NCBI GenBank assembly: GCA_044356455.1
Contig: JBIKWF010000058.1
Coordinates: 1 to 26,507 of the forward strand
Origin: Bdellovibrionota bacterium
GTDB taxonomy: Bacteria; Bdellovibrionota_C; UBA2361; JBGSMV01
Length of the DNA stretch: 26,507 bases
Reading direction: 5' to 3'
A program made the position numbers. Numbering within the stretch: the first letter of the stretch is position 1; each line of letters begins with the position of its first letter. Below, in pieces: positions 1 to 3,000 of the stretch.

Positions 1-3000
1 GGACGGAGGGGCGTCTCCCTATTATCGGCATCGGTGGAATCTCCTCGGTGGGGCAGGCCTTGCGATACATAGGAGCGGGCGCGTCGCTGATTCAGCTGTA
101 TACCGGACTTGTATATGAGGGCCCGCTCCTGGTGAAGCGTTTGAATGTGGGGATTGGCAGAGCGGTTTCGCGCGCAGGCTGCCGAAGTATTGCAGAGCTT
201 GTGGGGCGCGGCGCTCACGAGATCTCCCAGTTGGAAAGTGTGGCGGTATGACCGGGAGGTTAGATCTACGAATTCAAGCGCAAGACGCGTGGTCTCAGGC
301 GCGTGCCACAAGTTTCCGCACCCTGCATGGTGAAATTGAAACACCCATTTTTATGCCAGTGGCAACGCAGGCAGCCCTGCGCGGCGTGGATCTCGCTATC
401 GCTGAGAATTTTGATTATCGCGTCTTGCTCGCGAATACCTACCATCTACTTCTTCGCCCGGGACCTGAGCTCTTTCGAAAATGGGGCGGCATTCATCCGT
501 TCATGAAGTGGCCGCACGCGGTCCTCACTGACTCTGGCGGCTTTCAGATTTTTTCATTGTCAAAGCAGCTCAAGCTCTCAGAAGAGGGGGCGCGCTTTCG
601 AAGTTATGTGGATGGCGACGAGATCCTTCTCACGCCAGAGCGTAGCATTGAAACCCAGCGCGCCATCGGAAGTGACATTATGATGGTGCTCGATCAGTGC
701 ATCGATTCAACCTCTGACCTTGGTGCTTCTCGCGCCGCCTTGCAGCTCACCACACGTTGGGCGAAGCGCTCCCTTGCCGCACGTGGAGATTCCCCTCAGT
801 CTCTCTTCGGAATTATTCAGGGAGCCTGCTTTAAGGAGCTGCGCCGAGAAAGCGCTGCTCAGATTACGGAGATGCCGTTCGATGGGTTTGCCATTGGCGG
901 ACTTGCGGTCGGCGAAACGAGAGCCGAACGCGAAGACATGACTGAATACACGGCGCCTTTACTCCCGGCAGATCGTCCGCGCTACTTGATGGGAGTGGGT
1001 ACCCCCATAGATCTTTTAGAAGCGGTGAAGAGGGGAGTGGACATGTTCGATTGTATCCTGCCAACCTCACTTGCTCATCAAGGGGTATGCTTTACCACCC
1101 GAGGAAAAATTGATTTGCGCCGTGGTGTCTATCGAAACAACGAAGATTCGCTCGATCCTGCCTGTTCCTGCTCAACCTGCACCAGGTTTAGTAAGGCATA
1201 TTTGCATCATTTAGTGCGGGCTGGGGAATTTGTCGCAGACCAGCTTCTTAGTATTCATAACCTCTTTTTCTATCGCGAGCTGATGCGTGGCATGCGCCAA
1301 TCTATCCTGCAGGGTAGTTTTAGAGAGTTCTATACTCGTCAAAAGCCGTTTCTCGAGGCTCGAGATGTAGAGAACCCGAGTGTTCCTCCCAAGCGCAAGA
1401 AGGAAAGGGACGAGCATGCGCTTGGCGACTACCAGGTTGTGCAGCATAGCACCGGTGGTTTTGGTAGTGTTAAGCAAGTAAGCTCGGGCGAAACCATGCA
1501 TTCGGTGAGTGATCCGGTCGTTGAGGCTGAGGCGCTCTACGTAGATCAGTCTCGGCTTCGGGAAAGAGTTCTTGCATCTGGAGGCCCGCTGGTGGTCTGG
1601 GATGTGGGGCTTGGCGCAGCTACCAACGCTATGGTGTGCCTTAAGGCGCTTGAGGACATGAGGAGCGATGCCCCGCGCCGCCCTGTTCAGATTATTAGCT
1701 TTGAACGAGACCTTGATTCGCTCAGACTTGCCTTGCGGCATCCAAGACTCTTTCGCCATTTGCGACATCCCGCGCCGCATGCGCTTCTTGAATCGGGAGT
1801 CTGGCGCTCCAAGGAAGAGAGGGGCGTAGGAGAGGGAGCGTCGATAGAGTGGCGTCTCTTAAAGGGCGATTTTTCAAAACTTTTCGAATCGGCTCCGCTG
1901 CCCGAGGTTATTTTGTACGATCCTTTTTCGGCGAAAGTTGATACTGAGCTCTGGGAGTACTCAATTTTTGAACGCTTGCTTCGCTACTGCGAGCAGCGAG
2001 GAGATTTTGGCACTTCGCTCTACACGTATACGAACTCTACTTCAGTGCGAGCAGCACTACTTGCGGCAGGGTGGTTTGTCGGCCGCGGGCGAGCGACAGG
2101 TCCGAAGTCTGAAACTACGACTGCCGGTACACTGGCGACCTGTTCCTCTCCTTTTGCTTTGAACCTTCTCGGGAAAGAATGGCTCGAGCGCTGGGAGCGA
2201 AGTGATGCGCGTCAGCCTGCAGGTACAAGGGGGGAAGAGTTCCTCCTGCGCATCCCTGGCCATCCGCAGTTCGGCGGTTCGGCAGGAATACATGCAGAGA
2301 CAATTCAGGGGGCTGGAGTTCCATAAACACAGTTCGGTGGTCTCGTGAGGGGAGCCGTGAGACATTCCTGCTCGCGAGCTACTATTTCGTACGGAAACCT
2401 GCTTATTCGCACTCATGCGAACTTTTGTGACAGGTTTTAAGTCACTTTGGTGGCGAAACATCCCATACCTCTGGACCCAATTCGACATTTGTTTTGAGCT
2501 CGGTGCGAGCGATTCTTCGGCATCTGCGTAGCAGGGCCTACGGGGAAGAAGTTCTTTTTTAGTTTCATGGCGGTAGCGGTGAGGGTTCCTTTTGTTACGT
2601 CTGGTGGTCTTCTCTCTGGCGTAGTTCCGGGCGGGGCGGTTACGAAAAGCGCCTCAGGCCCGCTTGATTTACTTTCGCCTGGAATAGAGAGCGCACTTCG
2701 TGCCCCAACGGCTCTTACTCCACCGCTCGACAAAACGCTCGTAACATCTTTCTTGCGAGCTCTTGCGCGGTTGGTAGATCCAGAAAAAAACCCGATTGCG
2801 GAAGTAAGGGGAGAGCCGAGATCCGCTGCCTGGGAACTTCGCTTGTTCCCTCACCCCCAGCGGCCCTACCACGTGCCTCTTCGGGGCGACGTAGCGCTGC
2901 TTGCGGCGCGTACTCCCGATCTTACGAAAGAGTTCGTCATAGGAGTAAAGCGTTTCTGCCGCGACCAGGACATTACGCGCTTATATTTGTATGACACCAG

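Follow-up and report, generated by a model that had tools for sequence, protein, structure and literature searches.

A gene at the start of a 26,507-nucleotide stretch of Bdellovibrionota DNA (the window; contig JBIKWF010000058.1) encodes a second tRNA-guanine transglycosylase, assigned by sequence to a separate Tgt clade described here and termed Tgt2, joined in one chain to a whole MnmC2-fold methyltransferase domain (Table 1). Tgt2 probably retains transglycosylase activity but acts on a different RNA target. That it represents an unrecognised transglycosylase class placing 7-deazaguanine outside the four GUN anticodons, with the MnmC2-like domain making N-methyl-preQ1 there, is a tentative proposal.

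Table 1. Coordinates, strand and supporting evidence of the features discussed, in window positions.
Feature	Position	Strand	Basis or remark
Tgt2-methyltransferase fusion gene, P0001	248..2326	+	692 aa; TGT and Methyltransf_30 domains
Tgt domain, residues 5-371	260..1360	+	TIGR00430, 6ygl alignment, 1q2r fold match
D268 nucleophile and altered motif I270, S274, H277	1049..1081	+	Z. mobilis V282, R286, R289 equivalents
R228, family-specific Arg (Z. mobilis M240)	929..931	+	conservation counts
R292, family-specific Arg (Z. mobilis N304)	1121..1123	+	conservation counts
Linker, Pro/Lys-rich, approximately residues 372-391 (about 20 aa)	1361..1420	+	coil, pLDDT 70-85
MnmC2/MnmD-like SAM methyltransferase domain, residues 392-676	1421..2275	+	NF033855 alignment, 3vyw sequence and fold matches
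pyrD (dihydroorotate dehydrogenase), 3' end	3..251	+	TGA overlaps the ATG of the fusion (ATGA, 248-251)

The fusion is encoded by one open reading frame without an internal stop. The Pfam domains given for this frame in an initial annotation were reproduced exactly (TGT at residues 17-364, E 7.2e-136; Methyltransf_30 at 532-626, E 1.4e-10, HMM 30-121 of 124). Its designation of residues 365-531 as a linker without a family was not upheld, as alignments to NF033855 and 3vyw place most of this segment in the first half of the MnmC2-fold domain, and the stops described inside relatives are, in the four such fused matches, alignments overrunning the true stop. Both domains lie in a single frame of 654-714 aa in each of these four relatives, G067, G069, G042 and G055 (G numbers denote relatives' genomes, with G000 the genome under study). 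PF01702 and PF05430 were both present in 119/119 of the best database homologues, among which fusions carry a plain Tgt label. The AlphaFold2 model had a mean pLDDT of 92.5 and a pTM of 0.68, the inter-domain pose being uncertain.

The Tgt half scored 436 bits against TIGR00430 (equivalog cut-off 306.75) and matched Z. mobilis Tgt 1q2r with a TM-score of 0.93; Z. mobilis numbering was taken from the alignment to 6ygl. The active site comprises D95, D149, C151, Q191, G218, V221, E223 and D268 (Z. mobilis D102, D156, C158, Q203, G230, V233, E235 and D280, respectively), the zinc ligands are C306, C308, C311 and H337 (CxCxxC...H), and the dimer residues are F85, Y318, H321 and E327. Catalytic, base-binding and zinc residues were unchanged in 102/102 locus paralogues, and D95, D149, C151, Q191, V221, D255 and D268 were conserved in 116/116 and 119/119 paralogues of two sets. 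C151/V221, kept in 116/116 paralogues, forms a preQ1-type pocket, not the queuine-type Val/Gly (roles of C158/V233: PMC3660597, as described in the available text), and a queuine-accepting Tgt was therefore ruled out. The DpdA/archaeal TgtA profile TIGR00432 gave 124.9 bits, below its cut-off of 350, DpdA 7ui4 was 17% identical in the fold search, and neither a PUA domain nor, among the neighbours of Tgt2 loci scanned, a dpd gene cluster was found.

The paralogues grouped as a single clade in the tree (SH 0.79-0.92, stem 0.48), and the surface that reads the RNA is altered. The V282/R286/R289 motif, which we take to adjoin the anticodon and read U35, is absent from the Tgt half and is replaced by I270/S274/H277; Xie et al. 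reportedly ascribed a role in reading U35 to R286 and R289. Position 274 (R286) was Arg/Lys in 41/41 ordinary Tgt versus 0/116 and 0/119 paralogues, and was Glu in 15 paralogues; position 277 (R289) was Arg in 41/41 ordinary Tgt versus Arg/Lys in 9/116 and 1/119 paralogues. Conversely, R228 was Arg in 116/116 and 119/119 paralogues and in 2/41 ordinary Tgt, and position 292 was Arg/Lys in 116/116 and 119/119 paralogues and Arg in 4/41 ordinary Tgt. Asp occupied position 289 in 52/116 paralogues; at the matching position of E. coli Tgt, K285D is described as abolishing the covalent intermediate with tRNA-Tyr (available text of PMC13416341). Compared with bacterial Tgt (TIGR00430; Z. mobilis 1q2r, E. 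coli 10fb), Tgt2 is alike in fold, nucleophile, C158/V233 guanine/preQ1 pocket, zinc site and dimer residues, but differs in that R286 is gone and R289 mostly gone, in V282I, M240R, N304R, H127Y and E157Q/H, and in its separate clade, its status as a second copy in the genome and its C-terminal methylase.

The MnmC2 profile NF033855 aligned over residues 414-626 of the C-terminal half (profile positions 7-206 of 209) at 62.3 bits, below its cut-off of 136, and PF05430 scored 41.6 bits, above its cut-off of 22. The nearest solved fold was Aquifex MnmC2 3vyw, an nm5s2U methylase, which matched residues 393-667 by fold (Z 24.4, rmsd 3.2, 239 aligned, 21% identity) and 406-630 by sequence (E 7.2e-10). 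A DxGxG loop lies at 452-456, and E486, D558, F560 and K620 are the equivalents of E101, D178, F180 and K236 of E. coli MnmC, whose roles are described in the available text of PMC3648344, with D178 as the proposed base for the amine. The bifunctional MnmC profile NF002480 gave 37.9 bits against 540, with the match confined to 415-628 and the FAD oxidase MnmC1 absent. In a tree built without Aquifex MnmC2, the subfamily was a long-stemmed clade separate from 14 ordinary MnmC2, with H418, P423, W451 and T598 invariant, and an ESM Atlas search returned PF05430 clusters only. The domain is like MnmC2/MnmD (NF033855; Aquifex 3vyw, E. coli 2qy6/3awi) in fold, SAM loop and the four E. coli MnmC equivalents, and differs in its profile score, in its own clade, in lacking the MnmC1 oxidase and in often coexisting with ordinary MnmC.

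From these features, the fusion would be an accessory two-step RNA modifier. Tgt2, probably as a homodimer, would excise guanine through D268, as its conserved active site suggests, and insert preQ1, a base fitting the C151/V221 pocket. The target would be a G outside the U33-G34-U35 loop of tRNA Asn, Asp, His or Tyr. The simplest candidate, with the U33-reading D267 kept, would be G34 in a different tRNA family; examples may be tRNA-Cys, -Ser(GCU) or -Phe. We infer a non-GUN target because residues surrounding the target G on its 3' side have been replaced and because ordinary Tgt and QueA are retained. Methylating the nitrogen of the preQ1 aminomethyl arm would be the reaction that MnmC2 carries out on nm5U. 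By this analogy, the tethered domain would use SAM to methylate preQ1, once inserted, at its primary amine, giving 7-(methylaminomethyl)-7-deazaguanosine; lineages with Tgt2 alone would end at preQ1. QueA acts on the same amine. This whole chain, from insertion of preQ1 outside the four GUN anticodons to its N-methylation by the tethered methylase, is quite possible, though somewhat short of probable.

The initial annotation had also read the protein as an accessory enzyme that inserts a 7-deazaguanine and then methylates it. This reading was supported in part: a true paralogue with both active sites intact, kept beside ordinary Tgt and QueA, fits an accessory modification, while action of one domain on the product of the other is conjectural. 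The ordinary 385-aa Tgt and queF that it listed were both found in G000, with tgt at G000:C173:4537-5748 (385 aa from the first Met) adjoining queA, and its claim of patchiness agreed with the paralogue's presence in 42/73 genomes of the order and 0/23 outside the order. Ordinary Tgt was present in 42/42 own-phylum Tgt2 carriers and a second Tgt match in 49/50 cross-phylum carriers; QueA, present in 95/96 and 49/50 genomes of two sets, is not replaced by the fusion. The same architecture recurs across several phyla at 53-66% identity, with carriers in Bdellovibrionota-like groups, Verrucomicrobiota, Leptospiraceae and Steroidobacteraceae, and the methylase motif was matched by at least 588 genome stretches.

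Clustering of neighbours across 132 loci gave antisense frames and within-genus synteny only, with no conserved neighbourhood, which counts against the proposed chain, and pyrD upstream of the fusion was not a conserved neighbour. Of 64 proteins chosen by hand from the flanks of fused and stand-alone genes, none was encoded by an mnm gene and only one by queF. In favour of the chain, stand-alone methylase L181 adjoins queF, and stand-alone methylase L218 adjoins a second tgt copy that carries V282I and R286T. Mobile-element cargo was rejected: a search of 72,556 plasmids gave no match to the methylase, 20 phage records included no whole-length match, and the GC (0.545) and GC3 (0.54) of the fusion gene are similar to those of its neighbours.

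The main rival explanation, which we consider doubtful, is that the halves have separate jobs: the C-terminal domain would be the ordinary enzyme that methylates nm5(s2)U34 to mnm5(s2)U34 by the ammonium route known from Aquifex, Tgt2 would independently insert preQ1 at some site, and the fusion would merely tether two anticodon-loop enzymes. This is consistent with 3vyw as the closest fold, with the classing of the architecture among MnmC2 fusions by Jaroch et al. and with the independent function of the E. coli MnmC domains (both in the available texts; the latter in PMC3648344). In G000, which has mnmA, mnmE and mnmG, the fusion holds the sole PF05430 match and only MnmC2-type domain, a point against accessory methylation, and in its own phylum and Verrucomicrobiae the fusion is usually the only MnmC2; MnmC2 is absent from more than half of mnmAEG bacteria, so sole-copy status proves little. 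Fused (6) and stand-alone (13) methylases never occurred in one Verrucomicrobiae genome, and no other MnmC2 was found in the genomes with either form. In the own phylum, Tgt2 was found in 0/19 genomes with bifunctional MnmC and 1/7 with MnmM, but the MnmC exclusion is weak because only 6 MnmC genomes (3 families) fall in Tgt2's order, many genomes of which have neither MnmC nor Tgt2. Separate occurrence of the halves also counts against insertion followed by methylation. The methylase subfamily lacked Tgt2 in 13/101 Verrucomicrobiae and in own-phylum G036 and G054, where Tgt is ordinary, and 11 genomes of genus g27 had Tgt2 without PF05430 or a close methylase in searches with controls. A profile search of five Tgt2-only genomes, run without a positive control, found no methylase, and in G084, with Tgt2 and no methylase, the frame runs off the contig. 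The idea that every methylase-only genome hides an R286-less Tgt was discarded, as 12 further Verrucomicrobiae, G036 and G054 show the ordinary motif; G359 is the only methylase-only genome with an R286-less duplicate Tgt.

Against separate jobs, and for an accessory modification, ordinary enzymes coexist with the fusion. Ordinary MnmC/MnmC2 was present in 98/101 Leptospiraceae; the extra domain occurred in 16, of which 14 were confirmed as full fusions and 2 were pieces at contig ends. Since 16/16 carriers also hold the ordinary enzyme, the fused methylase is spare there. Ordinary MnmC/MnmD was present in 7/50 cross-phylum carriers, and 8 more had extra stand-alone subfamily copies. Of the Steroidobacterales, 99/101 had no PF05430 at all, and the two fusions there therefore replace nothing. 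Separate jobs would also leave Tgt2's own role unexplained.

It is unlikely that the fusion acts on the same tRNAs with another end product, preQ1 at G34 of GUN tRNAs carrying a methyl cap that blocks QueA, as a condition-dependent alternative to queuosine; this comes nearest to the wording of the initial annotation. Such a role would accord with the TIGR00430 score, with QueA's use of that amine, with retention of the K52 and D267 equivalents and with a net charge of residues 269-300 that is about the same (+2.8 vs +3.0), but not with the loss of R286 from every paralogue, the retention of QueA and ordinary Tgt in nearly all carriers or the 11 genomes without the methylase, where Tgt2 would be redundant. 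Improbable too is a non-tRNA substrate for Tgt2, be it an mRNA or rRNA hairpin, DNA, a protein or, in salvage, free nucleosides; the methylase would then modify either the Tgt2 product or the free base. Substrate switches within the Tgt fold have precedents in DpdA (7ui4, DNA) and CBASS Cap10 (9ntn, protein), both in the fold search (PMC5699537, available text), and E. coli Tgt is reported to modify non-tRNA hairpins; but Tgt2 is 42-47% identical to tRNA-acting Tgt, which its fold matches closely, against 15-17% to DpdA/Cap10, the reported E. coli tRNA-stem contacts K292 and R320 are kept as R296 and R324, the methylase retains its RNA-binding Lys, no dpd, defence or transport neighbours were found among the loci scanned, and the plasmid and phage searches were negative as above. 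That a redundant Tgt copy became fused by chance, or that the fusion is decaying, as patchiness and its splitting or loss inside one genus might suggest, is highly improbable given the matching genome stretches, the recurrence across phyla, the invariant active sites and the fixed family-specific residues.

The TGT-MnmC2 fusion has been listed in print, without a function, in one sentence among four MnmC2 fusion kinds (Jaroch et al., bioRxiv 10.1101/2023.12.21.572861). The listed architecture is the same (PF01702 and MnmC2); the available main text contains "tgt" once and is silent there on paralogue status, RNA-binding changes and MnmC coexistence. The initial annotation had overlooked this listing and the rebuilt anticodon-reading surface, the strongest feature, which points away from GUN wobble sites. 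No paper on the function of the fusion and no methylated preQ1 nucleoside in RNA were found in the literature searched. A related system is that of phage DpdA2 and DpdM, by which preQ1 is inserted into DNA and then N-methylated (mdPreQ1; PMC10516641, available text): transglycosylation followed by N-methylation and the product are as proposed here, but the substrate is DNA, DpdM has an unrelated metal-binding fold, and the genes are separate and phage-borne.

If the preferred reading, preQ1 insertion at a non-GUN site followed by N-methylation, is true, an RNA nucleoside so far known only from phage DNA would be added, and several phyla would have a second wobble-deazaguanine pathway alongside queuosine. 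To our knowledge, bacterial tRNA 7-deazaguanines occur only at G34 in the four GUN tRNAs, a rule that would then be broken. Many plain-Tgt annotations would need correcting, and the family would reveal residues that set the RNA specificity of Tgt, which would be useful for Tgt-based RNA labelling.

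The ATG of the fusion gene overlaps the stop codon of pyrD, which lies upstream, and a Pfam search reproduced the figures of the initial annotation for a Tgt domain followed by a methyltransferase domain. The Tgt part passed TIGR00430 (436 bits against a cut-off of 306.75), and the C-terminal part aligned over residues 414-626 with the MnmC2 profile NF033855 at 62 bits, below the cut-off of 136. The top match of the C-terminal part was Aquifex MnmC2 (3vyw), both by sequence search (E 7.2e-10) and by fold (Z 24.4, rmsd 3.2, 239 aligned, model residues 393-667); most of the 167-aa stretch previously described as an unknown linker therefore belongs to the N-terminal half of the methylase domain, and the true linker is about 20 residues. 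In the AlphaFold2 model (mean pLDDT 92.5, pTM 0.68), the predicted Tgt part fitted 1q2r, the RNA-bound Z. mobilis structure, with a TM of 0.93. The Tgt-MnmC2 architecture is named in one sentence of the accessible text of a preprint (bioRxiv 10.1101/2023.12.21.572861), and literature searches, in which subscription journals were thinly covered, returned no functional study; the fusion is catalogued but uncharacterised.

Features of the window with their positions and strands
Feature	Position (nt)	Strand	Remarks
Fusion gene	248-2326	+	Single open frame of 692 aa
496-aa ORF	2567-4057	+	No Pfam match
tsaD and rsmA	12158-14142	+	RNA-modification genes, 10 kb downstream of the fusion
791-aa ORF	14158-16533	-	No Pfam match
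Small HTH_17 gene	16610-16870		Excisionase-type; adjoins the 791-aa ORF
502-aa ORF	20730-22238	+	No Pfam match; inside methyltransferase-glycosyltransferase cluster 18141-23482
457-aa ORF	23465-24838	-	No Pfam match

By eye, the 791-aa ORF has a sigma-like helix-turn-helix near its middle and approximately four spaced His-Pro...Tyr-Phe repeats in its C-terminal half. Neighbour clustering of fusion loci did not recover tsaD or rsmA as recurrent neighbours.

Judged by its sequence, the Tgt half (Tgt2) is an enzyme distinct from ordinary Tgt. Paralogue domains from the loci were compared with 41 ordinary Tgt domains, mostly of the same genomes, after removal of duplicates and of alignment rows with fewer than 290 matched positions and exclusion of one locus (L086); Z. 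mobilis numbering was transferred to the fusion via the alignment. Paralogues were monophyletic in two trees (102/102, SH 0.79; 119/119, SH 0.92). D102, D156, C158, Q203, V233, E235, D267 and the nucleophile D280 were invariant in 116/116 locus paralogues, as were G230 and the zinc ligands in 102/102; roles of D280, C158, V233 and E235 have been described (PMC3660597). The base pocket, which retains C158 and V233, is therefore of the preQ1 type.

The RNA face differed. Arg or Lys at the R286 position was found in 0/116 locus paralogues and in 0/119 of a second, overlapping paralogue set versus 41/41 ordinary Tgt, and at the R289 position in 9/116 and 1/119 versus 41/41. The V282 position was Ile in 102/116 and the H127 position Tyr in 113/116, while every paralogue had Arg at the M240 position (2/41 ordinary Tgt) and Arg or Lys at the N304 position (4/41). 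Work by Xie et al. is said to assign the reading of U35 to K52, V282, R286 and R289, and that of U33 to D267. The net charge of residues 269-300 was unchanged (+2.8, +2.7 and +3.0), so charge was relocated, not lost. E. coli Tgt K285D and K292D abolish the covalent intermediate (PMC13416341); equivalents of K292 and R320 were mostly retained, and the K285 site was Asp in 52/116 paralogues, a weak argument because 34/41 ordinary Tgt have Asn there.

In E. coli MnmC, E101 and F180 bind SAM, D178 activates the amine and K236 binds RNA (PMC3648344). The corresponding E486, D558 and F560 were present in 110/110 fused members and K620 in 109/110. In a tree without the Aquifex sequence, the 131 fused and stand-alone methylases grouped as a single clade (SH 0.77, stem 1.7), separate from the 14 ordinary MnmC/MnmD sequences. 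Several Bdellovibrionota genomes carry up to two extra stand-alone subfamily methylases beside the fusion (L177, L180-L183, L185-L190); one (L181, G132:C302, 1441-3240), in a genome also carrying the fusion, lies tail to tail with queF. At L218 (G359:C91, 2756-4888), a stand-alone subfamily methylase and a duplicate tgt of Verrucomicrobia type, carrying V282I and R286T, are arranged head to head; the duplicate, a single case, shares both changes with Tgt2 although it falls outside the Tgt2 clade, and the other tgt of that genome (L226) is ordinary.

All 119 best database homologues (53-75% identity) contained both domains. A methylase-motif scan matched at least 601 stretches, of which at least 588 were confirmed, and 80 loci were kept (labelled Bdellovibrionota/Oligoflexia, Verrucomicrobiota, Steroidobacteraceae, Leptospira, Binatia and others), fused wherever the contig permits except for two solo genes in genus g27. 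In even samples, each containing its centre genome, a carrier by choice, the fusion was a minority: 6/101 Verrucomicrobiae, 2/101 Steroidobacterales, and 14 full fusions plus 2 contig-end pieces among 101 Leptospiraceae. Within its own phylum the paralogue occurred in 42/96 genomes, all of the order to which the window's genome belongs. It is fused in 26 and interrupted by contig ends in 2; in 3 an unfused or truncated copy accompanies a separate methylase gene, and in 11 it is unfused and no methylase was found, although one of these 11 copies (G084) runs off its contig.

Ordinary Tgt was found in 42/42 own-phylum carriers and a second Tgt match in 49/50 cross-phylum carriers (fragmented in about five), and QueA in 95/96 own-phylum genomes and 49/50 cross-phylum carriers; the 50 were hand-chosen for spread from the 80 loci, and each count is one lower without the unpublished genome G137, on which no conclusion depends. 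One genome (G125; L171, C22) carries an unfused Tgt2 in addition to the fusion and an ordinary Tgt, and another (G047; L127, L250, L251) has three Tgt-like genes, one divergent at 33% identity. The genome carrying the window (G000, 93% complete) encodes ordinary tgt adjoining queA on contig C173, queF, queG, mnmG, mnmA and mnmE, with no match to MnmM. QueC had no match in G000, G069 or G082 (all three 93-99% complete), though G000 has queF, queA, queG and two Tgt; these three genomes may salvage preQ0 or preQ1.

We tentatively favour, at somewhat less than even odds, a chain in which Tgt2 would exchange a base for preQ1 at a site other than the anticodons of GUN tRNAs (Asn, Asp, His, Tyr) and the methylase would N-methylate the inserted base. 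N-methyl-preQ1 is known as a phage deoxynucleoside made by DpdA2 and DpdM (PMC10516641); the proposed product is the same, but there it is a deoxynucleoside.

That the halves instead do independent jobs, the methylase as an ordinary nm5U-type enzyme and Tgt2 on its own, is the main rival reading and somewhat less likely. Co-occurrence data on the methylase role cut both ways, and all counts include kin, hence non-independent genomes. An ordinary role is favoured by the fusion being the sole PF05430 match in G000, by Tgt2 in 0/19 own-phylum MnmC genomes (only 6 of the 19 in the order with Tgt2) and only 1/7 MnmM genomes, by 6 fused and 13 solo forms that never coincide in Verrucomicrobiae, where other MnmC2 was not found, and by solo subfamily methylases in genomes whose Tgt is ordinary. 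A separate substrate is favoured by ordinary MnmC or MnmC2 in 16/16 Leptospiraceae carriers, by the ordinary enzyme in 7/50 cross-phylum carriers and extra solo subfamily copies in 8, by the lack of any PF05430 in 99/101 Steroidobacterales, and by solo subfamily genes adjoining queF once and an R286-less duplicate tgt once. The ordinary and separate methylase roles need not exclude each other, because both substrates carry an aminomethyl group on base 34.

Capping by methylation on GUN tRNAs and a non-tRNA target of Tgt2 are both improbable; a decaying fusion is scarcely credible. The fusion combines two intact active sites with a rebuilt RNA face and is retained beside the normal enzymes, and its Tgt half is a variant of a known enzyme kind.
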